A stretch of 64,000 nucleotides of DNA, taken from Dehalococcoidia bacterium (GTDB lineage: Bacteria; Chloroflexota; Dehalococcoidia; Lucifugimonadales; UBA1127). Position 1 is the first letter of the stretch. Every line of letters begins with the position of its first letter. Where the stretch lies: assembly GCA_965116355.1 (NCBI GenBank), contig OZ220679.1:2273034-2337033 (forward strand), read 5' to 3'. Made by a program: the position numbers and the translations under genes. The notes under the pieces were generated by a model, which did not search any database, had not been told where the DNA came from, and saw only the letters and a program-made list of their open reading frames with translations. Below are positions 331 through 34,596 of this stretch, piece after piece.

Positions 331-537
331 CACGACGCCGGCCCTTCCATCCAAATGCCCCTAGACAACGCCGTCAGGCGACGGCAAAATCCCTATGTTC
401 AAATGCCGCGAGGGCCTTACGGCGCTATGCGTTTGCGCCTTCGTCGCGGTTGGGGCCAACAATCCGGTCATTCGGGGCGGCTGTGCGAGACGGCCGGCAT
501 CCGACCAATCAGCAGGGTTGCGGGAGGGGAGAAGTCC

Positions 538-1473
538 ATGTTCAAGCGTATTCTGACGCCGCTCGACGGTTCGACGCTTTCCGAGGGCATCCTGCCCTAC
601 GTACGGGCGCTGGCGCCGGCCTTGGGCGCGCGGGTGGAGCTGCTGCACACGCACTCGTCCATGACGACGTACGAGCTGGAGGACCTGAAGGACGAGGAGC
701 ACGCGTCAATCATGGCGGCGCTGGAGCCGGTGCAGACGCGCCTCCGGAACCAGTCGGTGAGCTACCTCTCGCAGGTGGCGCACGGCCTGGCGGACCTTGG
801 GGTGGAGACGCGGGTGAGCGTTCGGATCGGGTCTCCGGCGGACCAGATTGTGGACGTGGCGGAACAGGAACCGGACACGCTCATCGCCATGTCGACGCAT
901 GGGCGCGCAGGCGTGGGCCGGTGGCTGATGGGGAGTGTGACGGACCGGGTGCTGCACACGACGATGACGCCGATGCTGGTGGTACACCCGGAGCGATTCT
1001 CGCCCTCGCCTGACAGCGCGACCGCGATCCAGACGCTGATCGTGCCGCTGGACGGCTCGGACCTGGCAGAGACTGTGATGCCCATTGCGGGGGCGGTGGC
1101 GGCGGCCGCCGGGGCGGGCGTGCAACTGGTGCGGGTGCTGGACGCGGCGGCGCGGTCCGGGATGAGCGTCAGCCAACTGGCTGAGGCCGGTGTCAGCGAG
1201 GGGACGCGTGAGGAAGGCGACGCTTCAGAGTACCTGGGCGGGAAGGCGGAGGAGCTGCGACAGAGCGGGGTGGCGGATGTACACACGATGGTGCTCCGCG
1301 GCAACCCGGCAGAAGAGATAGAGGAGCTCTCAAGGAATACGCCCAACAGCATGCTGGTAGCGTGCACGCATGGCCGAAGCGGCGTTGGACGGGCTGTGAT
1401 GGGCAGCGTTACGGACCGGCTGGTACGGCACTCGGGACACCCGGCGCTCGTCGTGCGGGCACCGCATTACTAG
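538..1473 (+). CDS. Tandem-domain universal stress protein (two UspA domains)
   Basis: Start chosen at ATG 538 (MFKRILTPLDGS...), preceded by GGGAGGGGAG. There are two Usp-like halves, each ending in (S/C)THGR(A/S)GVGR...GSVTDRV... The upstream part of track ORF 355..1473 looks non-coding. Confidence 0.85.
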   Translation: MFKRILTPLDGSTLSEGILPYVRALAPALGARVELLHTHSSMTTYELEDLKDEEHASIMAALEPVQTRLRNQSVSYLSQVAHGLADLGVETRVSVRIGSPADQIVDVAEQEPDTLIAMSTHGRAGVGRWLMGSVTDRVLHTTMTPMLVVHPERFSPSPDSATAIQTLIVPLDGSDLAETVMPIAGAVAAAAGAGVQLVRVLDAAARSGMSVSQLAEAGVSEGTREEGDASEYLGGKAEELRQSGVADVHTMVLRGNPAEEIEELSRNTPNSMLVACTHGRSGVGRAVMGSVTDRLVRHSGHPALVVRAPHY

Positions 1474-1481
1474 GCGCGAGC

Positions 1482-2525
1482 CTAGGACGTCACCTCGATA
1501 TAGGTGTCGCGGGACTTGACGATCTCGCCGATGCGGTAGCCGTCGGCGCCGTGGGCGCGGAGGGAATCGATCAGGCCGGCCTCGCGGCTCCGGGGCACCG
1601 ACATCAGCAGCCCGCCGGACGTCTGGGCGTCGCAGAGCAAGAGCTTGGCCGCTTCCGATATCCCCGAATCCCAGTGGGCCACGCCCTCCATGGAGTCAAG
1701 GTTTCGCCGCGTGCCGCCGGGAACCACGTTCTGCTCCAACAGGTCCCACGTGCCCTTCAGGACGGGGACCGCGTCAAGCGAAATCCTCGCGGCGACGCCG
1801 CTTGCCGCCGCCATGTTCCGCAGGTGGCCCATGAGACCGAAGCCGGTGACGTCCGTGCAGGCGTTGACGCCGGCAGGCTTCATCGACAGGGCGGCACCCT
1901 CGTTCAGCCGCGCCATCATCTCGACGGCCTCGTCAAGGACGTCGTCAGGAGCAATGCCGGCCTTCGCGCCGGTGGTGATGATGCCGGTGCCGATGGGCTT
2001 GGAGAGGATGAGCACGTCACCGGGCCGGGCATCGGCGTTGGAGATGTGGTCGCCGGGACGGACGATGCCGGTTACGGCGAGCCCGTACTTGGGCTCGGCG
2101 TCGTCGATGGTGTGGCCGCCGGCGATGAGAACGCTGGCCTCCCTCGCCTTGGCGTAACCGCCCTTTAGGACGGTGGCGAGGATGCTCTTGTCCAGCGACA
2201 CGGGGAAGCAAACGATGTTGAGGGCAATGACGGGCATGCCGCCCATGGCGTAGACGTCCGACAGGGAGTTGGCGGCGGCGATTTCCCCGAACGCGTAGGG
2301 GTCATCGACGATGGGCGGGAAGTAGTCAACGGTCTGGATGATGGCAAGATCGTCGGTGATCCGGTACACAGCGGCATCGTCCCCGGTATCCGGACCGACA
2401 AGCAAATCGCGGTCAGACATGTGGGGCAATTGACTGAGGATTTGACCCAGATCCTCCGGGCTAAACTTAGCCGCTCAGCCTGCGCAGTGGGCAAGTTGAG
2501 TCAACTTGACTTCACTGTTTGACAT
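1482..2525 (-). CDS. selD: Selenide, water dikinase (selenophosphate synthetase), predicted selenocysteine-containing form (in-frame TGA at 2475-2477)
   Basis: Track ORF 1482..2429 is clearly SelD (AIR-synthase-like fold; ...DAAVYRI..., ...SDVYAMGG.P...). Reading upstream in the same frame gives ATG(2525-2523) SNSEVKLTQLAHCAG-TGA-AAKFSPEDLGQILSQLPH. This is the conserved N-terminal catalytic loop, where SelD carries Cys or Sec. Confidence 0.85.
2436..2456 (-). promoter_or_regulatory. Candidate bacterial SECIS hairpin for the selD UGA
   Basis: The mRNA reads UGA, then 18 nt, then GAGGAU-CUGGGUCAA-AUCCUC. This is a perfect 6-bp stem with a 9-nt loop containing GGU. The apical loop starts about 25 nt after the UGA, within the range typical of bacterial SECIS elements. 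Confidence 0.5.
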
Positions 2526-2602
2526 ACCCTCCCTCGGATTCCCGTGAGCAGGTTACCAGGCACATGGCCTCGGCGGAGTATAGCAGCATTGCACCCGTTC
2601 GA

Positions 2603-4687
2603 CTATGCAGGGGCAGCCGTGAGCAGCAGCTCATACCCGGCTGACTGCCGGGTGTGCGGCGTCAGCGACGCGACGATGACGGCTGCGGTCTCACCCTCGG
2701 CGAGGGCGGGGATGTTGAGGGTGCCAGCGTTGGCGTCGTCCAGGGGGACGTCGAGGACGGTGGGGGCGCCCTGGGCTCGCTCGACGACGACGCGGACGCC
2801 GAAGCGCTGGGGGAGGGCGTTGTTGGTGCGGACGAAGCCGTCGGCCGTCCATGCGCCGCCGGTCTCGGCGTCGTCGAAGAATCCGATCTCGGGCACGGCG
2901 ACGTCGTCAATGCAGGCGCCGTCGAGGCTGATGGCGGCGTCGAAGACCTGCTCGAAAGAGACGAGCACGCGCCCGCCGGCGAAGGGGGTGAGATCCACGC
3001 GCTCCTCCACCCATCCGCCGCTGTGCCCGGTGAAGCCGGGGCCGTAGGTTGCGCCGATAGGGTCGTCGGTGACGGTGTGGGCGCCGGGGAGGACGTGCCA
3101 CGTGTCGCCGCCGTCAGGAGTGGCCGTGACGTAGAGGTAGTCCCACTGCTCCTCCAGGTTGTGCCACATGCGGAAGGTGAGGGTGGCCTCGGTAACGGCG
3201 GACAGGTCGAACTCGTGCGTCAGGCGGGAGTGGGAGGCGTCGCCGCGGTTGCTCCACCAACAGGCCTCGCCGCTGAGAGGGGTGGTGTCGAGGATGGAGG
3301 CCGTGGAATCGCCGACGAAGGTCAGCGTCGCGCCGGTCGCGGGGACGTCGAGGCGGAGGACGTCGGCGGCGAAGGGGGCGACGTCATCGCGGAAGGGGGC
3401 GTCCGCCCGGACGGTGCGGCGGGGATCCACCTTCACGAGATTCGAGGCGTCGGCGTAGCCGTAGGGCATGGCGGCATCTCCGCCGAGGATGTTGGCGACG
3501 GACCAGTCCATGAAGAGGCGCTCGAAGGTCTGGGGGTGGCCGGCCTCGCGGAGGTAGGCGTCGATTCCGGCGGCGCCGTCCTCGGGCCGGGCGATGAGGG
3601 GGGCGAGGGAATCGAGGCCGTAGCGCTGGGTGAAGTAGAGGAAGAACAGGTAGGCGGTGTTGTAGTAGCGGCCGATGCCCTGACCGTAGCCGGGCCAGTT
3701 TGTGAGGGAGATCTCCTCGCGGAAGCCGGGCGGCGTGACGGGGCGCTGCGGGGAGACGAGCCCAGCGGTCACCTCCGAGATGCCCTCGTTCATCCAGGTG
3801 TGCTCGTTGGGGTCAACGAGCTGGTGGAGGAGGTGCTGCAACTCGTGGCCGGTGAGGCTGCTGAAGCCTGCCCTGCCCGTGCGGATGACCCGGGAGTCGA
3901 GGTAGAGGGCGGGCCGTCCGTTGCTGTAGGGGAAGACGGGGGGCGTGTAGTAGTCGGACGAGGCAAAGTAGCCGGCCGCGCCGCTGAGGGGGGCGATGAC
4001 CATGGAGACGGGGGCTTCGGAGGGCGCGCCGGCCTCTCCGGGGACGAAGCCGAGGGTGGCGCGGGCGACGGTGGGGAAGACGTGGCCCTCATAGAGCTGG
4101 GCGAGCTGCTGGAGTCGCCCCCGCTGGGGGTCCACTCCATCCGCGACGTACCAGAGGGCGTTGGGGGTGACGAACTGGAGGGTGGCGGGCACCGGATCGA
4201 CGCGGAGACGGATGAGGTCGACGATCCAGAAGGGCTCGGTGCGGCCGACGTCGTCGGCGGTGAGGACGGGGGCGACGGCGAGACGGGCGTCCTCGCCGGG
4301 CCGGAAGCGTTTGGCGAGGGCGACGAGGTCGGCGGGCGGCGGCGGGTGGATGCGGGCGGGGAAGGCCGTGCCGGCATTCATCTCCGCGGGAGACAGGGAG
4401 GGCCGCTGGAGCGGCTCGGCGGGGGCCGGGGTGGCGGCCGGCGCCGGAGGCGCGGGCGTCGGCGCGGGGTTGGCAGCGGCCGGCTGCGGGGGCGCGGCGG
4501 TGGGGACGGGGATGGCGGTTGGAGAAGCGATGGCGGCCGGGGATTGTGTTTGATCGGGCTCGCTCTCGCAGGCGGAGGCGATGGCGGCGAGGAAGGCGGC
4601 GGCAGTCACGAGCGCGAGGGCCGGCCACCTCCGCTTAAGCGTCTCGCCCCTGTGTGATTGGGCTTGCATGCCGTCCCCTGGTCTCAA
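2603..4687 (-). CDS. Secreted or lipoprotein zinc metallopeptidase (HExxH...E, gluzincin-like) with Pro/Ala-rich N-terminal linker
   Basis: N-terminal signal with lipobox-like ...FLAAIASAC, followed by a PA-rich low-complexity linker. The motif TGHELQHLLHQLVDPNEHTWMNEGISE contains HExxH plus a downstream NEG-E. An alternative start exists at ATG 4669. Confidence 0.7.
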   Translation of the reverse strand: MRPGDGMQAQSHRGETLKRRWPALALVTAAAFLAAIASACESEPDQTQSPAAIASPTAIPVPTAAPPQPAAANPAPTPAPPAPAATPAPAEPLQRPSLSPAEMNAGTAFPARIHPPPPADLVALAKRFRPGEDARLAVAPVLTADDVGRTEPFWIVDLIRLRVDPVPATLQFVTPNALWYVADGVDPQRGRLQQLAQLYEGHVFPTVARATLGFVPGEAGAPSEAPVSMVIAPLSGAAGYFASSDYYTPPVFPYSNGRPALYLDSRVIRTGRAGFSSLTGHELQHLLHQLVDPNEHTWMNEGISEVTAGLVSPQRPVTPPGFREEISLTNWPGYGQGIGRYYNTAYLFFLYFTQRYGLDSLAPLIARPEDGAAGIDAYLREAGHPQTFERLFMDWSVANILGGDAAMPYGYADASNLVKVDPRRTVRADAPFRDDVAPFAADVLRLDVPATGATLTFVGDSTASILDTTPLSGEACWWSNRGDASHSRLTHEFDLSAVTEATLTFRMWHNLEEQWDYLYVTATPDGGDTWHVLPGAHTVTDDPIGATYGPGFTGHSGGWVEERVDLTPFAGGRVLVSFEQVFDAAISLDGACIDDVAVPEIGFFDDAETGGAWTADGFVRTNNALPQRFGVRVVVERAQGAPTVLDVPLDDANAGTLNIPALAEGETAAVIVASLTPHTRQSAGYELLLTAAPA

Positions 4688-4781
4688 CTGTCCCTATGTC
4701 CAGAGTAACACAGGCGGCTTGTACCCATGTGCGCCGGGACGCCTCTTTCGGCGTGCGCCGAGGTCTGCCGGGCAAGCGTCG

Positions 4782-6812: not shown

Positions 6813-6838
6813 CGGCGGGCAGTGGGTGGACATAATCC

Positions 6839-7693
6839 ATGACGTTCTGGAACACCTGGACATTCGACCCGCTGACCCTTGCCGGGTTGGCCGTGCTTTT
6901 CCTTCTCTACACGCGCGGGCTGTGGCGCAGCCGCGGTCGCTCAGGCAACCTCTTCCCGTGGTGGCGGCCGACCTCGTTCTACGCGGGGTGGACGGCGCTG
7001 CTGATGGGGGCGGTGTCGCCCATCGACGGGCTTTCGGGCGACCTCTTCCTCATGCACATGGTGCAGCACATGCTCATGATGATGGTGGGGCCGCCGCTGA
7101 TCCTCGTCGGGGCGCCGGTGGTGCCGGTGCTGCGGGGGCTGCCGGGGGTGCTGCGGGCGGACCTCGCCATCCCGCTGCTGCAGATGCGGCGGGTCCGCAA
7201 GGTACTGAGCTTCCTTGCGTCGCCGCTGACGGCATGGCTGGTCTTCGTGTTCACGGTGTGGATATGGCACATTCCGGCGCTGTACAACGAGGCGGTCACG
7301 AACGAGTGGCTGCACTTCCTGCAGCACGTCATGTTTACGAGCGCGGCCGTCTTCTTCTGGTGGAGCGTCATCGACCCGGTGCCGCTGAAGCCGCGGCTGG
7401 CGTACCCGCTGCGGCTGCTGTACCTGTTCCTCGCGACGCTGCAGAGCACGGTGCTGGCGGCGATCATCACGCTCTCGGAAGAGGTGCTGTACACGTACTA
7501 CGTGAGCGTGCCGCGGCTGTGGGGGCTGACGCCGGGGGAGGACCAGATGATCGCGGGGCTCATCATGTGGATACCGGGGGCGGGAATCTACTTCACGGTG
7601 CTGACGGTATTGTTCTTCGTCATGCTGTACAAGGACGACCAGCGCATGCGGCGGCTGGAGGGGCGGCCGGTGAGCGGGCCGCGGCGGTGGTGA
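6839..7693 (+). CDS. ctaG: Cytochrome c oxidase assembly factor CtaG (caa3-type, COG3336)
   Basis: Polytopic membrane protein with ...LFLMHMVQHMLMMMVGPPLILVGAP..., typical of Bacillus-type CtaG. It lies directly upstream of the oxidase structural genes. Confidence 0.8.
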   Translation: MTFWNTWTFDPLTLAGLAVLFLLYTRGLWRSRGRSGNLFPWWRPTSFYAGWTALLMGAVSPIDGLSGDLFLMHMVQHMLMMMVGPPLILVGAPVVPVLRGLPGVLRADLAIPLLQMRRVRKVLSFLASPLTAWLVFVFTVWIWHIPALYNEAVTNEWLHFLQHVMFTSAAVFFWWSVIDPVPLKPRLAYPLRLLYLFLATLQSTVLAAIITLSEEVLYTYYVSVPRLWGLTPGEDQMIAGLIMWIPGAGIYFTVLTVLFFVMLYKDDQRMRRLEGRPVSGPRRW

Positions 7694-7746
7694 GGGCGCC
7701 GCCGCGTTGACGGCGGCAAAACTTTGCGCGATTTTTCACCAACCCA

Positions 7747-7776
7747 TTGACTACGAAAGTTTCACGCCTATAGAAT
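7747..7776 (+). promoter_or_regulatory. Sigma-70-like promoter upstream of the oxidase structural genes
   Basis: TTGACT (7747-7752) plus a 16-nt spacer plus TATAGA (7769-7774). The alternative -10 is TAGAAT with an 18-nt spacer. It sits in a locally AT-richer intergenic stretch. Confidence 0.4.
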
Positions 7777-7902
7777 GGGGCTGCTGCAAAGGGGACTGTA
7801 CGGCTGTGCCAGCACGGGAGGCTCCCTGGCCCCCGACGCGAACAGCCTCTCAACGCTCATGGGGACGGCAGCAGCCGGTCACAACGACAATGAGAGAGGA
7901 CC

Positions 7903-9009
7903 ATGGCGAACCGAATACACATCCGCCCTAAGTCCCTGCTCGCACTCCTCGCCCTTGTAGTTTTGCCCATCCTCGCAGCCTGTGGCACCGTCGACTCGGC
8001 GCAGACCACGATCAACCCACAGTCGGACGTCGCACGGGAGATTCAGGGCACGTACGCATTCATCTTCTGGGTGTCCGTCGTGGTGTTCGTCGTCGTGGAA
8101 GGCGCGCTGGTGTACGCGGTGTTCCGCTACCGGCGCCGGGCGAACTCCGGCATCCCCAAGCAGACCGAGGGCAACATGGTCCTCGAAGTCACCTGGACGA
8201 TCATTCCCGCGTTGATCCTGGTCGCCATCGCGGTGCCGACGTGGATCACCATCTTCCGGACGGACGACATCCCCGAGGGGTCGTTCATCGTGAACGTCAC
8301 GGGCCACCAATGGTGGTGGGAAGTGGAGTATCCGGAGCTGCGCACGGGTGATGGCGACAACGAGGTCCGGCTGGTGACGGCCAACGAGATCCGGGTTCCG
8401 GCCGACCGCACGATCGGCTTCCACCTGGAGACGAACGACGTGCTGCACAGCTTCTGGGTGCCGCAGCTCTTCGGCAAGGTGGACCTGGTGCCGGGGCGGA
8501 CCAACACGGTGTGGTTCACGCCAGACGCTGATACGGCTGGCGAGGTGTTCCTGGGACAGTGCGTGGAGTTCTGCGGACTGTCGCACGCCAACATGCGGAT
8601 GCGCATTTTTGTCGACAGCCCGGATGACTTCGCGGCATGGGCCGACGGGATCCGCTCGCCGGCGCCGGAGGCCACGGGGCTGGCGGCGACGGGGCACGAG
8701 CTGTTCTCGTCAAAGGGCTGCACGGTGTGCCACAGCGTCAACGGGGACTACGAGGCTGCGGGCCAGCCACTATCGAGCGGGCGCATCCTGATCGGCCCCA
8801 ACCTGACGGGCTTCGGCTCTCGGACAACGCTGGCGGGGGCCATCCTGGAGAACAACACAGCGAACCTCTCGGCGTGGCTGGCCGAACCGGACGAGGTCAA
8901 GCCCGGCAACCTGATGTACCAGGAGGCCGCGGCATACACGCAACCGGAGCTGAGCCTGGCGAACGAGGACGTCACCGCTCTGGTAGCATATCTTCAGCAT
9001 TTGCAGTAG
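7903..9009 (+). CDS. ctaC: Cytochrome c oxidase subunit II with C-terminal cytochrome c domain (caa3-type)
   Basis: Lipoprotein-like signal (...LPILAAC) and two TM helices. CuA motif HSFWVP...CVEFCGLSHANM. C-terminal heme c motif GCTVCHSV with a downstream Met. Confidence 0.9.
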   Translation: MANRIHIRPKSLLALLALVVLPILAACGTVDSAQTTINPQSDVAREIQGTYAFIFWVSVVVFVVVEGALVYAVFRYRRRANSGIPKQTEGNMVLEVTWTIIPALILVAIAVPTWITIFRTDDIPEGSFIVNVTGHQWWWEVEYPELRTGDGDNEVRLVTANEIRVPADRTIGFHLETNDVLHSFWVPQLFGKVDLVPGRTNTVWFTPDADTAGEVFLGQCVEFCGLSHANMRMRIFVDSPDDFAAWADGIRSPAPEATGLAATGHELFSSKGCTVCHSVNGDYEAAGQPLSSGRILIGPNLTGFGSRTTLAGAILENNTANLSAWLAEPDEVKPGNLMYQEAAAYTQPELSLANEDVTALVAYLQHLQ

Positions 9010-9063
9010 CGCATTCGGGGGCGTAACGCCGGCTCGTCCGGCGCGGCGTTTGGAGGCGAATAC

Positions 9064-10914
9064 ATGGCAACGGCAGTTGGCGCAGTAGGGCACGCGGACC
9101 ACGACGCGTCCAAGAGCGGCGCGTGGAGCTGGATTACCACTGTCGACCACAAGCGCATCGGCATCCTGTACGGGGTGTCGGCCGTCTGTTTCTTCCTGGT
9201 CGGCGGCTTCGAGGCGCTGATCATCCGACTGCAGCTGGCGGAGGCGGAGAGCGACCTCATCGGCGCGGGCCTGTTCAACCAGCTCTTTACGATGCACGCG
9301 CTGACCATGATTTTCCTTGCGATCATGCCCCTGGGAGCGGCGTTCTTCAACTACATCGTGCCGCTGCAAATTGGGGCTCGGGACGTCGCGTTCCCGCGGC
9401 TGAACGCGCTGAGCTACTGGCTGTTCCTCTTTGGCGCGCTCCTGCTGAACTCGAGCTTCATCTTCGGCGGCGCGCCCGACGTGGGCTGGTTCGCCTACGC
9501 CAACCTGACGGCGACGGAGTACTCGCCGAGCAGCGCCGTCGACTTCTTCGCCCTCGGCATGCTGGTGCTGGGCGTGTCATCGCTGGCCGCGGCGCTGAAC
9601 TTCATCATCACCATCCTCAACATGCGGGCCCCGGGCATGACGCTGATGCGGATGCCGGTGTTCACGTGGATGACACTGGTAGTGTCCTTCCTGCTTGTGT
9701 TCGCGCTGCCAATCCTCACGGTGGGGTTGGTGCAGCTCCTGTTCTGGCGGGAGTTCGGGATGCCGTTCTTCTCGGCGGAGGCGGGCGCCGACCCGCTGCT
9801 GTGGCAGCACATCTTCTGGCTGTTCGGCCACCCCGAGGTGTACATCCTGATCCTGCCCGCGATGGGCATTGTGTCCGAGATCCTGCCGACGTTCTCGCGG
9901 AAGCCGCTTTTCGGGTACTCGACGGTGGTGTTCGCGGGCGTGGCCATCGGCTTCATGGGCTTCGCGGTGTGGGCGCACCACATGTTCACGGTGGGGCTGG
10001 GGTCGATCGCGCTGGCGGCATTCTCGGCAAGCACGATGCTGATCGCGGTGCCGACGGGCATCAAGATCTTCAACTGGATCGCGACGCTGTGGGGCGGGTC
10101 GATCCAGTTTACGACGGCGATGCTGTTCGCGCTGGGGTTCGTGGCGCTGTTCGTCATCGGCGGACTGAGCGGCGTGATGCACGCCTCGCCGCCTGTCGAC
10201 ACGCAGCAGCAGGACACGTACTTCGTGGTGGCGCACCTGCACTACGTGTTGTTCGGCGGGAGCATCATGGGGCTGTTCGGCGGCATCTACTACTGGTTCC
10301 CGAAGATGACGGGCCGCCTGTTGAGCGAGGCCATTGGCAAGTGGCAGTTCTGGCTGATGTTCATTGGCATGAACGTGACCTTCGGGCCAATGCACCTGGT
10401 GGGCATCGACGGCATGCCGCGGCGCATCAACACGTACGACGAGAGCATGGGCTGGGAGCTGCTGAACCAGATTGAGACGGTGGGCGCGTTCATCATCGCG
10501 CTGAGCGTCGTGCTCTTCCTGTTCAACTTCTTCAAGAGCGTCAAGTCAGGCGAGCCGGCGGGCGACGACCCGTGGGACGGCCGCACGCTGGAGTGGGCCA
10601 TCCCTTCGCCGCCGCCGGAGTACAACTTCGCGCGGATCCCGGTGGTGCACAGCAACGAGCCGTTCTGGGACCAGAAGCACCCGGAGCTGAAGCACGACGC
10701 GCCGCCGGCCGTCGCGGGGGGCGCGGATGAAGAGGCGGAGGAGTCCATCCACATGCCGAACCCATCCTACTGGCCGATCGTCGTAGCATTGGGGACGGCG
10801 CTGGCGGCGGGACTGGTCATCATCAACCCGTGGCTGGCGTCCATCGGCGCGGTCATTGGGCTGCTGGGCATCTACGGATGGGTCTTCGAGCCGGCAGCGC
10901 CCGAGCACCACTAG
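9064..10914 (+). CDS. ctaD: Cytochrome c oxidase subunit I
   Basis: Canonical heme-copper oxidase subunit I sequence (...WFFGHPEVYILILP..., ...HHMFTVG..., ...VAHLHYVL...). Confidence 0.95.
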   Translation: MATAVGAVGHADHDASKSGAWSWITTVDHKRIGILYGVSAVCFFLVGGFEALIIRLQLAEAESDLIGAGLFNQLFTMHALTMIFLAIMPLGAAFFNYIVPLQIGARDVAFPRLNALSYWLFLFGALLLNSSFIFGGAPDVGWFAYANLTATEYSPSSAVDFFALGMLVLGVSSLAAALNFIITILNMRAPGMTLMRMPVFTWMTLVVSFLLVFALPILTVGLVQLLFWREFGMPFFSAEAGADPLLWQHIFWLFGHPEVYILILPAMGIVSEILPTFSRKPLFGYSTVVFAGVAIGFMGFAVWAHHMFTVGLGSIALAAFSASTMLIAVPTGIKIFNWIATLWGGSIQFTTAMLFALGFVALFVIGGLSGVMHASPPVDTQQQDTYFVVAHLHYVLFGGSIMGLFGGIYYWFPKMTGRLLSEAIGKWQFWLMFIGMNVTFGPMHLVGIDGMPRRINTYDESMGWELLNQIETVGAFIIALSVVLFLFNFFKSVKSGEPAGDDPWDGRTLEWAIPSPPPEYNFARIPVVHSNEPFWDQKHPELKHDAPPAVAGGADEEAEESIHMPNPSYWPIVVALGTALAAGLVIINPWLASIGAVIGLLGIYGWVFEPAAPEHH

Positions 10915-10924
10915 AGGGGAAGTC

Positions 10925-11539
10925 GTGACAACTAACTCCACGGCACACGAGAGTCACCTGGCGACCACGACGGGGCTTGACCACCGCAAGCTCCTGATGT
11001 GGCTGTTCCTAGCGTCCGAGTGTCTCTTCTTCGGCTCGCTCATCGCGACGTTCCTGCTGTACAAGGACGCGAGCGTGGTGGGGCCCCAGCCGCACGAGAT
11101 TCTGAACATCCCGGTGACGAGCACGAGCACGTTCGTGCTGCTGACGAGCTCGCTGGCGATGGTGCTGGCGCTCGCGGCGGTGCAGCGCAGCGACGTGGTG
11201 GCGGCACGGTTCTGGATATTCGCGACGGCGTTCCTGGGCGCGACGTTCCTCGGCTTCCAGGTGTACGAGTTCTACGAGTTCGTCATCCACGGACTGACGC
11301 CCAAGACCAACGTCTTTGGCGCGAGCTTCTTCACACTGACCGGCTTCCACGGCGCGCACGTGACCGTTGGCGTCATCTGGCTGATGTCGCTCTTCTTCTA
11401 CTCGTTCAGGCACGGGTTACCTGCGGAAAAGAGCCTGGACGTGGAGCTGGCGGGACTGTACTGGCACTTCGTGGACATTGTCTGGGTCGTCATCTTCACG
11501 GTGGTGTACCTGATCGGCACCCTGCCGCCGGAAGTTTAG
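10925..11539 (+). CDS. ctaE: Cytochrome c oxidase subunit III
   Basis: GTG start at 10925, just after the ctaD stop and a GAGGGGAAG motif. Typical subunit III motifs are present (...FFGSLI..., ...FHGAHVTVG..., ...YWHFVDIVWV...). Confidence 0.85.
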   Translation: MTTNSTAHESHLATTTGLDHRKLLMWLFLASECLFFGSLIATFLLYKDASVVGPQPHEILNIPVTSTSTFVLLTSSLAMVLALAAVQRSDVVAARFWIFATAFLGATFLGFQVYEFYEFVIHGLTPKTNVFGASFFTLTGFHGAHVTVGVIWLMSLFFYSFRHGLPAEKSLDVELAGLYWHFVDIVWVVIFTVVYLIGTLPPEV

Positions 11540-11565
11540 CGGCGCGGACCTCAAGGGGAGAGCGC

Positions 11566-11880
11566 ATGGCAGAGCACGAGCAACACGGGGCGCAAACGCA
11601 CGAGCAGGAGCACCCCTCACCTGCAAAATACATCCTGATAGCGACGTACCTGACGCTGATCACCATCTTCGAGGTGGCGATCTACTACGTCGAGGTGCTG
11701 CGGCCCGCTTTCCTCTGGATCTTCCTGGCGCTGTCCGCGCTCAAGTTCTACTACGTCGCAATGTTCTACATGCACCTCAAGTTCGATGCCCGGATATTCA
11801 GGCAACTCTTCATATTTGGCCTGGTGCTGGCGACGTTCATCATGGTGGCGTTGCTGCTACTGTTCGCCATCATCATCTAG
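11566..11880 (+). CDS. ctaF: Cytochrome c oxidase subunit IV (prokaryotic COX4/CtaF-like)
   Basis: ATG 11566 follows AAGGGGAGAG. It is a small three-TM protein (...YILIATYLTLITIFEVAIYY...LKFYYVAMFYMHLKFD...) in the position of subunit IV. Confidence 0.7.
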   Translation: MAEHEQHGAQTHEQEHPSPAKYILIATYLTLITIFEVAIYYVEVLRPAFLWIFLALSALKFYYVAMFYMHLKFDARIFRQLFIFGLVLATFIMVALLLLFAIII

Positions 11881-11946
11881 CAGACAAACCTTGCGCGCCG
11901 TCCGATCCACAGGGACCCTCCCGCACCAGCGCACAGGTCGTGTGCC

Positions 11947-13785
11947 GTGAGCGATTCTTCACACCGCAGCCTGCGTATCCTGCTGGCCGTCACCGTTGCG
12001 GCGACGTTCGGACTGATTACGCTGGGCGGAGTCGTGCGAGCGACGGAGTCAGGCCTCGGCTGCCCGGACTGGCCCCTCTGCCACGGGCAGATCATTCCCC
12101 CCTTCGAGTATCACGTCCTCATCGAGTACTCGCACCGGCTTGTTGCGAGCGTCGTCGGGGCGCTGGTGGTGGCGTGCGCGGTCCTGGTGTGGGTAAAGCA
12201 CCGGGAGTCGACGGGGCTGAAGCGGCTGATGGCAGTCGCCGTGGCCGCGCTGGCGGTGCAGGTTGTGCTGGGCGGCATCACGGTGCTGACGGAGCTGCCG
12301 GCGCCCATCGTGACGGCGCACCTGTTCGCGGCGGAAACGCTCTTCGCGATGCTCATCGTGGCGCTGCTGATCGCGCGGCCGTCGCCGGCGACGGTGGGGG
12401 GCGTCGGCGAGGAGCGGCACCCGTACTTCAACACGGTCCTCTTGATGGCGGCGACGTCGATGGTGATCCTGCTGTCGGGGACGTACATCGTCGGGAGCGG
12501 GGCGAGCACGATCTGCCCGTCGTGGCCGCTGTGCACGAGCGACTGGCTGCCGAACTTCGGGCTGCAGTGGGAGCACATGGCGCACCGGGTGATCGCGGGC
12601 GTTGGCGGGCTGTACATCATCGTGGCGGCGGTGCAGGCGCGGCGGTACAAGGCGCAGTCGCGAGCGCTGGCGGGGATGGGGATGGGCGCGGCGGCGCTGG
12701 TGGTCGCGCAGGTGCTGGCGGGGGCGATGAACCCGTGGTTCCAGTTCGACGAGTGGGTACGCGTCCTGCACCTGAGCCTGGCATCGGCGCTGTGGGGGCA
12801 CCTGGTGGCGATGGCCGTTGTGTCGGCGCGGATGCGTCCGGAGGCGGCAGAGCTTGCGGGGGGCGGCGGCGCAGAAGACAGCGAGCCGACAGCGGCGAAC
12901 GAGGGGGTGAAGGGCAGCTCGCTGCGGGTGGTCATCGGGGACTACGTGGCGCTGACGAAGCCGCGGGTGATGTCGCTGCTGCTGGTGACGGCGTTCGGCG
13001 GCATGGTGCTAGCGGCCGAGGGGTTGCCGGGCGCGGGGCTCATCGCGACGGTGATCGCCGGCGGGGCGCTGGCGTCCGGGGGCGCGAGCGCGCTCAACCA
13101 CTGGCTCGACCGGGACATCGACCAGAAGATGGAGCGGACGTCGACGCGGCCAGTCGCGAGCGAGCGGGTCAGCGGGCGGCAGGCGCTGGTGTTCGGGCTC
13201 GTGCTGAACGTGCTGGCGTTTGCGCTGCTGTGGTGGGGGGCGAACCTGCTGGCGGCGTTGCTCGCGATGGCGGGGTCGGTCTTCTACGTGCTGGTGTACA
13301 CCAAGTGGCTGAAGCGGTCGACGGCGCAGAACATCGTCGTCGGCGGGGCAGCAGGCGCGGTGCCGCCGCTGGTGGGGTGGGCCGCGGTGACGGGCGGGCT
13401 GACGCTGCCGGCGTTCTACCTCTTCGCGATCATCTTCTTCTGGACGCCGCCGCACTTCTGGGCGCTGGCGCTGCTCATCCGGAAGGACTACGCCGAGGCG
13501 GGGGTGCCGATGCTGCCGGTGGTCGCGGGGGAGGAGAGCACGCGCCGGCATATCCTGCTGTACACGCTGGCGCTAACGATGCTCTCGCTGCTGCTGTACC
13601 TGGCGACGGACAGCCTGGGGCTGGTGTACCTGATCAGCGCTACGGCGCTCGGGCTGGGGTTCGTCGCGTTCGCGGTGCGGCTGTTCAAGCGGACCGGGCC
13701 TCGGGCGGCGGCGCCTATCTACCGGTACTCGCTGCTGTACCTGGCGCTGCTGTTCCTGGTGATCATGGGGGACGGGGCGTTGTAG
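11947..13785 (+). CDS. ctaAB: Fused heme A synthase (CtaA/COX15, N-terminal) and protoheme IX farnesyltransferase (CtaB/CyoE, C-terminal)
   Basis: The N-terminal half has ...GGVVRATESGLGCPDWPLCHG... and a second ...ICPSWPLC... pair (CtaA). A linker follows around nt 12830-12930. The C-terminal half has ...YVALTKPRVMSLLLVT..., ...NHWLDRDIDQKMERT..., ...FFWTPPHFWALAL... (CtaB). It is one uninterrupted 612-codon frame. Confidence 0.85.
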   Translation: MSDSSHRSLRILLAVTVAATFGLITLGGVVRATESGLGCPDWPLCHGQIIPPFEYHVLIEYSHRLVASVVGALVVACAVLVWVKHRESTGLKRLMAVAVAALAVQVVLGGITVLTELPAPIVTAHLFAAETLFAMLIVALLIARPSPATVGGVGEERHPYFNTVLLMAATSMVILLSGTYIVGSGASTICPSWPLCTSDWLPNFGLQWEHMAHRVIAGVGGLYIIVAAVQARRYKAQSRALAGMGMGAAALVVAQVLAGAMNPWFQFDEWVRVLHLSLASALWGHLVAMAVVSARMRPEAAELAGGGGAEDSEPTAANEGVKGSSLRVVIGDYVALTKPRVMSLLLVTAFGGMVLAAEGLPGAGLIATVIAGGALASGGASALNHWLDRDIDQKMERTSTRPVASERVSGRQALVFGLVLNVLAFALLWWGANLLAALLAMAGSVFYVLVYTKWLKRSTAQNIVVGGAAGAVPPLVGWAAVTGGLTLPAFYLFAIIFFWTPPHFWALALLIRKDYAEAGVPMLPVVAGEESTRRHILLYTLALTMLSLLLYLATDSLGLVYLISATALGLGFVAFAVRLFKRTGPRAAAPIYRYSLLYLALLFLVIMGDGAL

Positions 13786-16882: not shown

Positions 16883-17473
16883 TTGCCGGAAGAAGGCGGG
16901 AGAATGGCCTCCACCGGTCCACCGATCCTTTGTGCGCGGGTGGCGCTCGGTTTTGTGCTGGGCATTGTGCTGCTCGTGCAGTCGGCTGCGCCGGCGCTCG
17001 CCAACGGCGTGCACGTCGGCAGCCGCGAGGTGTTCGCGGGCGAGGCCGGGGTGTACCGAATTGCAGTGACCACGACGCCGGTCGAGGGTGCGATGCACTT
17101 CATCATCCTGCTCTCGAAGGCGGATGACGGGGGAACGGTCGAGGACGCGGCGATCACCTTGCGCGGCGACTTCGTGGACGGCGAGGGGGTCTCAGCCGGG
17201 CCCGTGGAAGGGTACGGGACGATCGAGGGGCCGCTGTGGTACGCGGCGGACCTGGAGGTCGCGCCGGCGGGGCTGTGGGAATTCACGCTGACCGTGGACT
17301 CGGCGCTTGGGCAAGAGAGCGTGACCTTTGGCGTGCCGGTGCTGGAGCCGGGCGGCGGGAACCTGACGCTGTTCGCGCTGATCATCATCGCGCTGGCGAT
17401 ACTCGGGTTTACGCTTGGCAATCGAATGTTTGGGCGGCGTCGCCGTGCGGGTGGGCGCCGTTCGCAGGGGTGA
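16883..17473 (+). CDS. Hypothetical secreted beta-rich (FixH/YtkA-like Ig-fold?) protein with C-terminal TM anchor
   Basis: Signal peptide ...LLVQSAAPALA|NGVHVG. A roughly 130-aa beta-rich domain follows (...GVYRIAVTTTPVEGAMHFIILL...WEFTLTVDS...). Then comes a TM (LTLFALIIIALAILGFTL) and an Arg-rich tail. The start is TTG 16883 or ATG 16904. Confidence 0.6.
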   Translation: MPEEGGRMASTGPPILCARVALGFVLGIVLLVQSAAPALANGVHVGSREVFAGEAGVYRIAVTTTPVEGAMHFIILLSKADDGGTVEDAAITLRGDFVDGEGVSAGPVEGYGTIEGPLWYAADLEVAPAGLWEFTLTVDSALGQESVTFGVPVLEPGGGNLTLFALIIIALAILGFTLGNRMFGRRRRAGGRRSQG

Positions 17474-17486
17474 AACGAGGGAAACG

Positions 17487-18260
17487 ATGAAGGCAACGAG
17501 AATCCTCGCGCTGGCGGCGGCGGCTGCGCTTTCGCTGGCGCTTGTAGCGTGCGACGGGGATGGCGCGAGCGAGCCGACCGAGCGGACCATCACCATCGAG
17601 TTGGAGCGGGGGCAGATTGCTGGAGACGCTTCTAACTGGCGGGTCAACGCCAACGACGAGGTCACGCTGGTTGTGCGCTCGGACGAGCCGGTGAACTTCC
17701 ACCTGCATGGGTACGACCTGGAGCAGGACGTGACTCCCGAGGATCCGGCAACCTTCAATTTCACGGCGAACGCCACGGGGAGCTTCCCAATCACGATTCA
17801 CCGGTCAGATGTACCGGCGTCCATGAGCGACCACGATGCTGGGCATGACAAGGCGATCGAGGGGCCCGCGGGGATGAGCGTCGCGGTGGAGGCGACGCCG
17901 GACTCGGTGTCCGGGCTGAACCTGCGGATCTCGACGTCTAGCTTCACCTTCTCGCCGGAGGAGGTCGGGGGCGAGCACGTGCAGGGTCACGGGCACGCGC
18001 ACGTCTACGTGGACGGCGTGAAAGAGGGCAGGGTGTACGGCAACCACTATCACCTGGGCTCGGTGGGGCCCGGCGAGCACACTGTTCGCGTGACGCTGAA
18101 CGCGAACACACACGCCGAGTATGCCGTCGGCGGGCAGCTGGTCGAGCACTCGATCAGCGTCACGGTGCCCAGCGCGGAGGAAGCGGGCCACGAGCACGGC
18201 GACGGCGCGGATACGACGACCGTCGAGGCGGAGCTTGGCCGGTTTGAGGTGAGGCCCTAG
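17487..18260 (+). CDS. Lipoprotein with N-terminal cupredoxin-like domain and His-rich C-terminal domain
   Basis: ATG 17487 gives MKATRILALAAAAALSLALVAC (lipobox). Domain 1, ...ITIELERGQI...NDEVTLVVRSDEPVNFHLHGYDLE...ATGSFPITIH, resembles EfeO-type cupredoxin-like domains. Domain 2 is His-rich (...HVQGHGHAHVYVDGVKEGRVYGNHYHL...HEHGDG). Confidence 0.65.
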   Translation: MKATRILALAAAAALSLALVACDGDGASEPTERTITIELERGQIAGDASNWRVNANDEVTLVVRSDEPVNFHLHGYDLEQDVTPEDPATFNFTANATGSFPITIHRSDVPASMSDHDAGHDKAIEGPAGMSVAVEATPDSVSGLNLRISTSSFTFSPEEVGGEHVQGHGHAHVYVDGVKEGRVYGNHYHLGSVGPGEHTVRVTLNANTHAEYAVGGQLVEHSISVTVPSAEEAGHEHGDGADTTTVEAELGRFEVRP

Positions 18261-18281
18261 CATAACGCCAGTGAGGTCTAC

Positions 18282-19838
18282 GTGAAGCTACTGAACAGGC
18301 TGTCCATCATAGCGGTCGCCGCGGGGCTGGCGCTGGCCGTCTCCCCCGCGGCGGCCCACGGGTTCGGCGAGCGCTACGACCTGCCGGTGCCGCTGGGCTT
18401 GTACGTCTTGGGCGCGGGGGCGGCGGTGGCCCTGTCCTTCGTCGTCATGGGGGTCTTTGTGCGCGGCGGGGAAGCCGGCCACGGCTACCCTCGGTACAAC
18501 CTGCTGCGATGGCGGGTCGTGCGAGCGGCGGCGCACCCGGTCGTCGTGACGTTCGTACAGGCGGCGTCGGTGGCGACGCTGGCGCTGGTAGTCGTCGCAG
18601 GCATCATCGGCGACTGGGAGCCGACGAAGAACATCTCGCCAACGCTGGTGTGGATCATCTGGTGGGTAGGCATGGCGTACGTGTGCGCGCTGGTCGGGAA
18701 CGTCTGGCGGCTGCTGAACCCATGGAACGCGACGTTTTCGTGGGCGGAACGCGCCTACGGAGGACTCGGAGGAGAGGGCGTACTTGGGATGGGGTTGCGC
18801 TATCCGGCTGGGTTGGGCGTGTGGCCGGGAATGCTGGCGTTCCTGGTGTTCGCGTGGGTGGAGATCATCTACATCGAATCGTCGCTGCCGGGGCGGATCA
18901 CGCAGTTCGCCCTGGCCTACACGGTATGGATGTGGGCGGGCATGTACCTCTTTGGCCGTGAAGTCTGGCTGCGGCATGGCGACGCTTTCTCGCTAGTGTA
19001 CGGATTCCTGGCGCGGTTCTCGCCGACGGAGATTCGGGTGACGGACGCGTCGGTGTGCGCGGACTGCCCGGCGGAGTGTGCGGACGCCGGCGAGGGCCTC
19101 GCCGGGGATGACGGATGCGTCGACTGCGCGGAGTGCTTCACGGAAGCGCCGGCGGTGCAGCGGGAGATCAACCTGCGGCCGTACGTGGTGGGGCTGCTGC
19201 GCAGCGAGGGGCGCTCGCTGTCCGTGATGATGTTCGTGTTGCTGCTGCTGTCGACGGTGAGCTTCGACGGCTTCTCCGCGACGCCGGTATGGGGGCGCAT
19301 GTTCAATGCGCTTTTCGACGTGACACGGGACGCGCACATCGTGGGGAGCATCGGGCTCTTCGGATTCTTCGCGGCGGTCGTCGCGGTGTACATCATGTTT
19401 TCGGGATTCATGTCGATGGCGAGCGGCTACCGGCTGCTCTCGGTGGAGACGGGGCAGGTCTTCGTCCTGACGCTGATCCCGATTGCGCTGGCTTACCACC
19501 TGGCTCACTTCTTCTCGTTCCTGCTGATCCAGGGGCAGAGCATCATCCCGCTGGCGTCGGACCCGCTTGGGTTCGGATGGGACATCTTTGGGACCATGGG
19601 ATACGAGATCAACATCGGCATCATCGGGGCGCGGACGGTGTGGCTGGTGTCGGTGGCGGCGATCGTCGTGGGGCACGTGGCGGCGGTGTACCTGGCGCAC
19701 GTGACAGCGCTGCGCGCGATCCCGGAGCGGCGGTACGCGCTTCGCAGCCAGTACCCGATGCTGGTGCTGATGGTGGCGTACACGATGGTCAGCCTGTGGA
19801 TCCTGGCGCAGCCGATCGTGGAGCCGAGCGCGGGGTGA
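18282..19838 (+). CDS. Hypothetical polytopic membrane protein (about 10-11 TM) with a Cys-rich loop
   Basis: Signal peptide ...LAVSPAAA|HGFGERYDLPVPL, so the mature N-terminal residue is predicted to be His. There are many TM helices and a central loop CADCPAECADAGEGLAGDDGCVDCAEC with two CxxCxx(x)C clusters. I recognise no family. Confidence 0.7.
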   Translation: MKLLNRLSIIAVAAGLALAVSPAAAHGFGERYDLPVPLGLYVLGAGAAVALSFVVMGVFVRGGEAGHGYPRYNLLRWRVVRAAAHPVVVTFVQAASVATLALVVVAGIIGDWEPTKNISPTLVWIIWWVGMAYVCALVGNVWRLLNPWNATFSWAERAYGGLGGEGVLGMGLRYPAGLGVWPGMLAFLVFAWVEIIYIESSLPGRITQFALAYTVWMWAGMYLFGREVWLRHGDAFSLVYGFLARFSPTEIRVTDASVCADCPAECADAGEGLAGDDGCVDCAECFTEAPAVQREINLRPYVVGLLRSEGRSLSVMMFVLLLLSTVSFDGFSATPVWGRMFNALFDVTRDAHIVGSIGLFGFFAAVVAVYIMFSGFMSMASGYRLLSVETGQVFVLTLIPIALAYHLAHFFSFLLIQGQSIIPLASDPLGFGWDIFGTMGYEINIGIIGARTVWLVSVAAIVVGHVAAVYLAHVTALRAIPERRYALRSQYPMLVLMVAYTMVSLWILAQPIVEPSAG

Positions 19839-24438: not shown

Positions 24439-24524
24439 GCCGAAGTGGCGGAACGGTAGACGCGCTACGTTCAGGGCGTAGTGGGCAACAGCCCGTGTGG
24501 GTTCAAATCCCTCCTTCGGCACCA
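24439..24524 (+). tRNA. tRNA-Leu (anticodon CAG), CCA encoded
   Basis: Manual cloverleaf. Acceptor GCCGAAG/CTTCGGC; anticodon stem CTACG/CGTAG; loop TTCAGGG. It has a long variable arm and T-loop TTCAAAT. Confidence 0.85.
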
Positions 24525-24531
24525 CAAGCGT

Positions 24532-24608
24532 GCGCTTGTAGCTCAGCAGGATAGAGCGCAGCCCTGCGGAGGCTGAGGCCGTGGGTTCGAATCCCGCCAA
24601 GCGCGCCA
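24532..24608 (+). tRNA. tRNA-Arg (anticodon GCG), CCA encoded
   Basis: Manual cloverleaf. Acceptor GCGCTTG/CAAGCGC; D stem GCTC/GAGC; anticodon stem CAGCC/GGCTG; loop CT-GCG-GA; T arm GTGGG-TTCGAAT-CCCGC. Confidence 0.8.
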
Positions 24609-24622
24609 CTTCCCCTTCTTTC

Positions 24623-24699
24623 GGGCGGCTAGCTCAGTTGGTTAGAGCACTTGCTTTACACGCAAGGGGTCATAGGTTCGAGTCCTGTGCCGCCCACCA
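24623..24699 (+). tRNA. tRNA-Val (anticodon TAC), CCA encoded
   Basis: Manual cloverleaf. Acceptor GGGCGGC/GCCGCCC; anticodon stem CTTGC/GCAAG; loop TT-TAC-AC; T-loop TTCGAGT. Confidence 0.85.
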
Positions 24700-30936: not shown

Positions 30937-31617
30937 CTACTGCCACAGGTCGGGGTCGGGCCGGTTCATCAGTCCGAGGCCCAGGTATCCGTACCAGATG
31001 ACCAGCAGCACGTAGAAGCTCCGGGCCAGGGAGATGAAGGTGTCGCGGCTGTCGTTGTCGAGGATGGCCACCATGAAGAAGACCATGACGGCCAGGCTGA
31101 CGAGGGCAGCCACGAGGGAGATTATTCGGTTGTAGTCGTCCCTCGTGGAGAGGCCCAAGGCGAAGATGGCGCCGCCAAAGCCGAGCGCAATCCCGCCGGC
31201 GTAGACGAGAGCGGAGCCGGCGTAGTAGACGGGAACGCTTCCCGCGATCTGTTCGCTGGATTGGGCATCGGCCAGAATGAAGTCCATACCGCCGGACAGG
31301 ATCCAGCCGGTCAGTCCGACGAATATCATGAAGAAGCCCATTTGGACCAATGCCTTGCCGTTGCCCTGCAAGGTGACGTTCCGCATCAGCGCGTACAGGC
31401 CGGAGAGGATCAGGGACAGGCCAAGGATTATCCCGATGTTGGTTACGTTGGTCAGCTCGGGGTTGCCACCCCGCGCCGTTATGGAGCCAACAGCGTCGGA
31501 CACCTTGGCGCTGTCGATCAGCAGCCCGCCCGGCTCCAAGAGAAAGAAGACGAAGGCGATTATTGGCCCGAATATGAGTGACAGCCCCGCCAACCGGTTC
31601 ACGGATATTGTGCCCAT
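30937..31617 (-). CDS. Hypothetical integral membrane protein (about 6 TM; DUF4386-like?)
   Basis: ATG 31617 is preceded by GAAGGAGG. The sequence is strongly hydrophobic with multiple predicted TM helices. Confidence 0.65.
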   Translation of the reverse strand: MGTISVNRLAGLSLIFGPIIAFVFFLLEPGGLLIDSAKVSDAVGSITARGGNPELTNVTNIGIILGLSLILSGLYALMRNVTLQGNGKALVQMGFFMIFVGLTGWILSGGMDFILADAQSSEQIAGSVPVYYAGSALVYAGGIALGFGGAIFALGLSTRDDYNRIISLVAALVSLAVMVFFMVAILDNDSRDTFISLARSFYVLLVIWYGYLGLGLMNRPDPDLWQ

Positions 31618-32150
31618 GTTTGGACCTCCTTCATGCAATGCGATTCCTTGGCTCAATCCCTCCCAGCGCACATCCTGACGCCTAAGATGGGGCATTGCAA
31701 CAGGAAAATGACCTGTCCAAACGGCAATCTCGTTCGCTGAGTTGGTCCCGTGGAGAGAGGATGCCCGGCCGGACTTGCAGCGCAGATCTGGAACTCCCGC
31801 TGGATAGCCGACAGGACGGCATGCATGAACGCACCTCGATGCGCAGGCCTGTCGTCAGTTATCGGCGTATGTGGTTGCCTTGCTTCGGACAGGCGTCTGA
31901 GCCGGGCGTGGGGCGTGCGGCCCAAAGCGTGCACATTGAGCGAAATTAGTACCTGCAATTCGTATTGCTATATTCATCATCCGCAGGACATCAAGGCTCT
32001 GGTTCCTGTCTGAGATTCTCCCTATAGCCTATATTTATTGCTTTTGACGATTCAAGGAATTACATGTAGGATGGCAAGTGACGCCACGGCTGTTAATTCA
32101 GGGCAAACATTGGTTGTTTCAGCGTCCGAGAAACTTGGGGGGAGTGAGCG

Positions 32151-34397: not shown

Positions 34398-34596
34398 GCG
34401 CGCCGGGGCCAAAGCTGCCATCCTCGCCTCGCCGACCCGCCGGCGGCCTCGCTACGGATGGCGCGAGATTTCCAGCGAAACGAGGGCTGGCGGTTGCCTG
34501 CCCGCGCCTGTAGCATAACGCCAAGTGAGAGTGTCCGCGGGCATCGGACTTCGGGCTTTCGCTAGCCGCATCACCCAGGCAGGTGGGAATGTCCCG

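Follow-up and report, generated by a model that had tools for sequence, protein, structure and literature searches.

SelD, or selenophosphate synthetase (selenide, water dikinase), has been counted since the 1990s–2000s among the two most widespread selenoproteins of bacteria; the literature places it second among bacterial selenoprotein families by breadth of distribution and notes that it is often misannotated. Selenocysteine (Sec)-containing bacterial forms are known from Aquifex aeolicus, from Desulfomonile tiedjei, where the opal codon is codon 15, and from Acetomicrobium mobile (in BSepDB). These proteins belong to the same TIGR00476/NF002098 family as the gene described here, with which they have in common a G-U-A-A-K motif, a UGA at the catalytic position, an intragenic stem–loop directly downstream of the UGA, and regular truncation by gene callers. 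There is no difference of kind between this gene and the known Sec-containing SelDs; what is particular is its host, an uncultured aerobic Dehalococcoidia lineage. Cys-type SelD, represented by E. coli SelD (3u0o) and by Myxococcus and Gaiellales genes among the related loci (L048–L079), has the same catalytic loop and the same placement of Lys20, and also has in common with the present gene a D-L-x-Q-V-L segment and its self-complementary coding, but it carries TGC at residue 17 where the present gene carries TGA. Mutagenesis of E. coli SelD has established that both Cys17 and Lys20 are essential.

The gene lies on the minus strand of the 64-kb stretch of DNA that was analysed (the window). 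The mechanical list of open reading frames gives it as 1482..2429 (−), a 315-aa product with a TTG start. Reading the same frame further upstream gives ATG 2525-2523, SNSEVKLTQLAHCAG, TGA 2477-2475, AAKFSPEDLGQILSQLPH and then MSDRD..., and downstream of the TGA the frame runs as AAKFSPEDLGQILSQLPHMSDRD... up to TAG 1484-1482. The TGA is the sole internal stop in this continuous frame, and the extended product has 16 + 1 + 330 = 347 aa, with the UGA as codon 17. The original prediction had claimed both that the SelD call from TTG 2429 is truncated and that the in-frame reading begins at ATG 2525, and all of its coordinates were correct. The features of the gene are as follows.

1482..2525, minus strand: full selD coding sequence, 347 codons including the predicted Sec17, stop TAG 1484-1482, from family models and the alignment with E. 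coli SelD
2527..2535, minus strand: Shine-Dalgarno-like GAGGGAGGG, directly 5′ of the ATG, with a purine-rich motif of the GGAG/GAGG type in the same place in every relative
2523..2525, minus strand: ATG, taken as the true start codon, with ATG or GTG 16 codons 5′ of the TGA in nearly all Dehalococcoidia relatives and an identical codon in assembly L081
2475..2477, minus strand: UGA, predicted selenocysteine codon 17 and catalytic residue, aligned with E. coli Cys17; TGA in 60 and TGC in 15 of 75 loci
2466..2468, minus strand: AAG, codon for Lys20, predicted second catalytic residue of the N-terminal loop, aligned with E. coli Lys20
2418..2429, minus strand: internal TTG 2429-2427 and ATG 2420-2418, the starts chosen by ORF and gene callers, judged not to be real; their products are without residues 1-32 or 1-35, including Sec17 and Lys20

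A promoter and terminator scan of 1350-2750 returned nothing; an extended −10-like sequence, TGcTATACT, was seen by eye only at 2585-2577 (−).

Scored with Cys in place of residue 17, the 347-aa product reaches 390.3 bits against TIGR00476 (cutoff 125), covering profile positions 1–309 of 311, and 358.9 bits against NF002098 (cutoff 299), covering positions 1–342 of 347. The N-terminus aligns without gaps to E. coli SelD 3u0o, with about 340 residues collinear, so that U17 falls on C17 and K20 on K20, and the motif reads HCAG-U17-AA-K20 here and HGAG-C17-GC-K20 in E. coli. The crystallised sequence of Aquifex aeolicus SelD (2yye/2zod) reads SSG-C-AAK where the present gene has CAG-U-AAK, and the AA of the Lys20 codon is invariant in 38/38 aligned Sec-type genes. 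The expected match of H-C-A-G-U-A-A-K to the SelD motif was borne out by this alignment, as were the likeness of the upstream codons to SelD N-termini and the fit of the extended product to the SelD models from profile position 1. The product itself was scanned against NCBIfam only; the domain pair AIRS (PF00586) and AIRS_C (PF02769) is read from its homologues, in which precomputed Pfam matches are found on the 96 %-identical protein P0001 and on all 120 best homologues. On this profile and alignment evidence, the gene is selD, coding for a predicted selenophosphate synthetase that is a standard Sec-containing member of its family.

The Gly-rich N-terminal loop with residues 17 and 20 exists in the product only when the UGA is read through; because Cys17 and Lys20 are essential and both lie upstream, translation from 2429 or 2420 would yield a protein without the catalytic loop. 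Such short products are what databases hold. All of the best 120 database homologues are N-terminal truncations of 297–328 aa with at most 94 % query coverage, and the 96 %-identical relative is annotated at 312 aa, as had been foreseen for standard gene callers; an exact-sequence look-up found the 312-aa truncated product of the window to be absent from the record.

The conservation of the TGA was followed in a scan of species-representative genomes, which gave 80 related loci, in 75 of which the motif could be located. The nearest loci are uncultured Dehalococcoidia metagenome-assembled genomes (MAGs), the first of them (L001) at 86 % identity; the closest complete MAG is OX638292.1. At position 17, 60 of the 75 loci, from several phyla, have TGA, a recurrence well beyond chance; the other 15 have TGC and belong to Myxococcus/Corallococcus, Gaiellales and a few others. 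The closest 16 loci (L001–L016), all of them Dehalococcoidia and all species-level genomes, carry TGA without exception. An independent metagenome assembly from another sample, at 96 % identity, repeats the ATG...TGA segment with a single synonymous change and keeps the gene order of radical SAM, InhA-like peptidase, selD and Usp.

TGA is one substitution away from TGC or TGT, and other lineages have Cys-type SelD, so the TGA could be taken for a sequencing or assembly error, or for a recent inactivating mutation in a gene that is Cys-type or has become a pseudogene. The original prediction had named TGC or TGT in close relatives as the sign of such an error, and TGA was found at the same codon in all 16 Dehalococcoidia loci, in 60 of 75 loci overall and in the independent assembly, the last of which excludes sequencing error. 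Both flanks of the TGA are under purifying selection, and the remainder of selD is intact at full length, which argues against a pseudogene; from these comparisons, the error or pseudogene reading may be regarded as effectively refuted.

The evidence for translation 5′ of the TGA comes from pairwise comparison of 13 Dehalococcoidia sequences. Across codons −9 to −1 before the TGA, the difference rates are 0.145, 0.111 and 0.452 at the first, second and third codon positions, and 275 synonymous codon differences stand against 111 nonsynonymous ones; this third-position-dominated variation resembles the pattern 3′ of the TGA. As judged from these substitution patterns, the segment 5′ of the TGA is under purifying selection and is translated in frame with the remainder of selD. 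It is this evidence that bears on a start at TTG 2429 or ATG 2420, the one that ORF lists and gene callers give, in which case the gene would encode a truncated SelD-like protein and the upstream 16 codons and TGA would form an untranslated leader. That reading is highly improbable: the truncated protein would be without Sec/Cys17 and Lys20, the residues aligned to the catalytic residues of E. coli, the supposed leader is conserved as a peptide, with variation at third positions and with start codon and Shine-Dalgarno motif fixed in position, and sequence inspection found no Shine-Dalgarno-like motif ahead of either internal start.

Such in-frame translation requires that the UGA be decoded. 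Elsewhere in the window TGA closes 8–9 inferred genes; there is thus no global reassignment of the codon. The case for recoding is built on the conservation of the TGA and on the upstream coding evidence, and not on the hairpins discussed below. Together with the family models and the alignment to Cys17, these observations uphold the central claim of the original prediction, namely that reading the UGA as Sec restores the catalytic N-terminus of SelD: the gene would be a selenoprotein gene, with the UGA almost certainly specifying Sec at the catalytic site.

The best explanation, to which we assign a probability of about 0.93 on sequence comparison, is that this locus is the Sec-containing selD of an uncultured aerobic bacterium of the class Dehalococcoidia, with UGA codon 17 recoded as Sec. 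Translation would begin at ATG 2525 behind the Shine-Dalgarno-like motif, and at the UGA (2477-2475) SelB carrying Sec-tRNA(Sec) would be recruited by a stem–loop in the coding sequence just 3′ of the codon, allowing the predicted insertion of Sec. The ribosome would then continue to TAG 1484-1482 to yield the 347-aa enzyme, in which Sec17 and Lys20, within the flexible Gly-rich N-terminal loop, would form the catalytic site that converts selenide and ATP into selenophosphate. The genes selA, selB and selC are expected to lie elsewhere in the genome, and published work credits the class with the Sec trait.

Within the 64-kb window, no tRNA-Sec was found by an Rfam gathering scan or by ARAGORN, and ARAGORN found none in L001–L040; its 92-nt 'tRNA-Ala(ggc)' at 51880-51971 is a false positive inside the CobS gene. 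Pfam scans revealed no selA, selB, selU or selenoneine (sen) genes among the 40 window ORFs, and SelA/SelB signature motifs are absent from the 6-kb flanks of the Dehalococcoidia loci; a regular-expression search for the SelA PLP and SelB G1 motifs over the related loci retrieved only Desulfosporosinus (L026, L028) and the Deltaproteobacteria MAG L064. Two in-frame-TGA scans yielded no second selenoprotein in the window, and a match at 45157 (−) was rejected as an antisense-frame GC3 artefact. Two of the genes close to selD are the following.

331-1473, plus strand: tandem-Usp protein, neighbour of selD
2603-4693, minus strand: InhA-like metallopeptidase, neighbour of selD

Also near selD are a radical-SAM protein and glyoxalase-fold proteins, and beyond these the window holds a caa3-type cytochrome oxidase cluster, FtsZ, fumarase, PEP carboxylase, MetE, cobalamin salvage genes and IlvD, among others. 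This is the ordinary housekeeping content of an aerobe.

The lack of a tRNA-Sec in the window leaves some room for the UGA to be translated as Cys by a tRNA(Cys)UCA of the selC* type, or to be read through by a near-cognate tRNA as Trp or Cys, so that the enzyme would be Cys-type or inactive. Such selC* tRNAs exist, and Desulfomonile tiedjei selD gives an active enzyme when its opal codon is read as Cys (PMC5389517). The same study describes selC* mainly in delta-proteobacteria and reports a genuine tRNA-Sec in Chloroflexi (PMC5389517), and Dehalococcoidia MAGs have large selenoproteomes, with 46–49 selenoprotein genes each, in a survey in which 16,621 species were judged positive for the Sec pathway (PMC13326102). 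Downstream of the UGA there are SECIS-like hairpins with loops of the G[G/U] type, and TGA serves as a normal stop in other window genes. Decoding as Cys or by readthrough is unlikely on these grounds, and decoding of the UGA as Sec is the reading retained below.

Three structures can be drawn in the RNA around and downstream of the UGA.

2445..2461, minus strand: hairpin H1, GCCCGGA/UCUGGGU with a GGA triloop, best SECIS candidate; 7-bp stem, 20 nt after the UGA, −9.3 kcal/mol
2436..2456, minus strand: hairpin H2, GAGGAU/AUCCUC with loop CUGGGUCAA; perfect 6-bp stem that overlaps and excludes H1
2432..2480, minus strand: long imperfect stem–loop of the minimum free energy (MFE) fold, enclosing H1; lower stem GGCUGAG (2480-2474, with the UGA) and CUCAGUC (2438-2432)

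The SECIS of the E. coli fdhF type also has a bulged U, a feature that is not evident in the window hairpins. The likeness to it lies in an in-ORF stem–loop 3′ of the UGA, in the position of the UGA within the lower helix, and in a small apical loop that starts with G followed by G or U; the window hairpins have neither sequence homology to the fdhF SECIS nor an Rfam match, and they are candidate SelB-binding elements. A permissive Rfam scan of 2300-2620 gave no match to a SECIS family, and the sole match in the scans, to the hairpin ribozyme (E = 4.9), is attributed to chance.

The published model of the bacterial SECIS (bSECIS) requires an apical loop of 3–9 nt on an upper stem of 4–16 bp; a G must stand among the first two loop bases, with G or U as the usual next base, the UGA and the loop must be 16–37 nt apart, and the MFE may not exceed −7.5 kcal/mol (PMC13188914). 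H1 agrees with all four of these criteria. H2 was the candidate put forward in the original prediction; its 6-bp GAGGAU/AUCCUC stem and 9-nt loop were found as described, beginning 18 nt after the UGA (GAGGAU at 2456-2451, loop at 2450-2442, AUCCUC at 2441-2436), but as drawn it departs from two of the four criteria, with a loop that begins CU and an energy of −6.5 kcal/mol, and H1 is the stronger candidate. If H2 is redrawn to include inner U-A and G-C pairs beyond a C·A mismatch, its loop shrinks to a GGU triloop, 27 nt after the UGA, and its energy falls to −7.5 kcal/mol. H1 is more stable by 2.8 kcal/mol than H2 as drawn, and the MFE fold, which contains H1, has an energy of −19.8 kcal/mol, nearly equal to the −19.4 kcal/mol of the best fold containing H2. 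The ensemble pair probability is about 0.55 for H1 and 0.21 for H2, and occlusion of the first 12 nt, such as a ribosome would cause, shifts the values to 0.87 and 0.07. The 66-nt region as a whole folds no better than dinucleotide-shuffled sequences (z = −0.84).

Comparison among relatives divides the clade. H1 is conserved only in the window and L001–L004, and not in L005–L015; it is kept in L002–L004 through G·U to A-U and C-G to U·G changes. The H2 register is the one that recurs across the wider Dehalococcoidia set, in which 80 % of cells are paired, the covariation is reached by 0/500 shuffles and lies above all slid controls, and RNAalifold independently recovers the register. Synonymous compensations are seen in L007 (GAA with UUG) and L008 (UUG with CAA), and the closing pair occurs as GAU:AUC, GAU:GUC and GAC:GUC. 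Across L006–L015, the stem in this register comprises 4–8 contiguous pairs and carries a G[G/U]N triloop at 27 nt from the UGA; in L006, L009, L012, L013 and L015 it becomes a perfect 8-bp AGGACCUG/CAGGUCCU helix. The lower helix (GGCUGAG/CUCAGUC) is 79.5 % paired in the clade, with little covariation. The covariation of H2 is weak across phyla, and RNAalifold found no consensus structure in a 38-sequence multi-phylum alignment, which indicates that SECIS positions differ between lineages.

The Cys-type genes provide a control for these hairpins. Pairing in the fixed register is 4.0/6 in Cys-type and 4.1/6 in Sec-type genes, with similar MFE, and a hairpin agreeing with all four bSECIS criteria occurs in 11 of the 15 Cys-type genes as compared with 57 of the 60 Sec-type genes. 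The Cys-type genes give such hairpins because the encoded D-L-x-Q-V-L (GAC-CUG...CAG-GUC) is self-complementary at the codon level, and SECIS-like hairpins at this site are thus partly a by-product of the encoded peptide. Remnant SECIS-like structures after the Cys codons of former selenoproteins were also described in a 2006 survey. Only the first loop bases separate the two classes, with G[G/U] at this point in 44/60 Sec-type genes as against 3/15 Cys-type ones (Fisher p = 2e-4, for sequences that are phylogenetically non-independent, ten of the 15 Cys-type sequences being Myxococcus or Corallococcus), and the apical loops of Cys-type genes mostly begin GC. The hairpins are consistent with a SECIS but are no independent proof of recoding, and their specificity is low.

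Between the two candidates, the folding models tip the choice towards H1 as the SECIS of this gene, with a little better than an even chance. That H2 (2456-2436) and not H1 is the functional SelB-binding element here is a tentative reading, which draws on the retention of its register across the wider Dehalococcoidia clade, on the perfect 8-bp stems with G[G/U]N triloops in the five relatives named above, and on the GGU triloop and −7.5 kcal/mol of the redrawn form. It has against it the CU loop start and −6.5 kcal/mol of H2 as drawn, the greater stability of H1 and its dominance in the ensemble, the perfect retention of H1 in the subclade of the window (L001–L004), where the changes strengthen it, the example SelD SECIS in BSepDB, which lies 17 nt after the UGA and thus close to the position of H1, and the pairing of the H2 register in Cys-type genes as well. 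The gene combines two overlapping SECIS candidates, and members of the clade seem to favour different ones. It is conceivable, although doubtful, that H1 and H2, being mutually exclusive, are alternative SECIS conformers that tune Sec insertion.

The stop codons of the clade form a side observation of their own. They were counted over high-GC3 ORFs of at least 150 codons.

Window, GC 66.6 %: TAG 23, TGA 8, TAA 6
L001–L004, GC 64.7 %: TAG 25, TGA 2, TAA 1
L005–L015, GC 61.8 %: TAG 41, TGA 12, TAA 17

TGA usage rises with GC content. In the literature, TAG is described as normally far rarer than TGA (PMC10471768), and TGA usage is said to increase across genomes (PMC9348620). It is conceivable, although doubtful, that the strongly TAG-rich and TGA-poor stops of this 62–66 % GC Dehalococcoidia clade are a lineage-wide adaptation to heavy recoding of UGA as Sec or to altered RF2 activity, in which selD, needing its own product, would sit in a selenium-dependent autocatalytic loop.

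Sec-containing SelD and its misannotation are already known, and Dehalococcoidia have already been catalogued as rich in selenoproteins (PMC13326102); the finding is scientifically nothing new, and its use is for annotation. The proper annotation would be a 347-aa selenoprotein with a translation exception at codon 17, in place of the current 312–315-aa database entries, which are without the catalytic loop. This selD would mark the organism as a user of Sec, and more genes with in-frame UGA codons are to be expected elsewhere in its genome.

In Cys-type selD genes, which carry TGC at codon 17 instead of the TGA read as selenocysteine (L048-L079; Myxococcus and others), a hairpin is kept in the same register as in the Sec-type genes, as exemplified by GACCUG-GCC-CAGGUC in Cys-type loci such as L055 (6031+). 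Either it is left over from a former SECIS, or it follows from the fact that D-L-x-Q-V is encoded by self-complementary sequence. Because Cys-type genes retain a hairpin at this position, matches to SECIS models are poorly specific within the SelD family.

A further small conserved hairpin, GCUGAG/YUYAGC, in which 2474-2479 pairs with 2460-2465 (-), was predicted by RNAalifold from the Dehalococcoidia set, and would include the UGA codon itself. Its pairs are near-invariant or show one-sided changes only within that set, and the hairpin can coexist with H2, one of the overlapping SECIS candidates following the UGA; it and the lower stem of the MFE fold are mutually exclusive.

Further features of the window, including one in the gap upstream of selD, are as follows.

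Other features of the window
2577-2585 (-), extended -10-like TGcTATACT, within the 77 nt that separate selD from the peptidase gene
6836-13785 (+), caa3-type cytochrome c oxidase cluster
18261-19838 (+), large high-GC3 frame, 525 codons, no Pfam match
24439-24699 (+), three-tRNA cluster, Leu(CAG), Arg(GCG) and Val(TAC), on which ARAGORN and Rfam agree
34519-36210 (+), large high-GC3 frame, 563 codons, no Pfam match
56423-57454 (-), bacterial collagen-like protein, 343 codons, Pfam collagen triple-helix repeats (E = 5e-13)

The -10-like element upstream of selD is identical in L081, an independent metagenome assembly, and was not called by a strict two-hexamer promoter scan. For the two large high-GC3 frames, the Pfam search returned nothing at E <= 1e-5, and a Pfam match was likewise absent for the smaller frames 17382-18260, 30937-31854 and 44688-45260. 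ARAGORN also reported a 92-nt 'tRNA-Ala(ggc)' at 51880-51971 (+), which was rejected as a false positive, as it lies within the CobS gene (51686-52513), lacks Rfam support and consists of coding-like sequence.

The caa3-type cluster, which indicates an aerobic lifestyle, includes CtaG, a COX2 fused to a cytochrome c domain, COX3, and a COX1 bearing a subunit-IV-like segment at its C-terminus. The fusion of CtaA and CtaB is noteworthy: a single 634-codon frame joins a heme A synthase domain (COX15/CtaA) to a heme O synthase domain (UbiA/CtaB).

Stop-codon usage was counted over high-GC3 ORFs of at least 150 codons. TAG prevails and TGA is scarce in the window and in L001-L015, its Dehalococcoidia relatives, although the GC content is 62-67 %; the TAG/TGA/TAA counts are 23/8/6 in the window, 25/2/1 in L001-L004, which form its own subclade, and 41/12/17 in L005-L015. 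In the literature, TGA stops are described as ordinarily far commoner than TAG (PMC10471768, PMC9348620). The TAG bias may be tied to heavy use of UGA as a selenocysteine codon in Dehalococcoidia, or possibly to release-factor changes.
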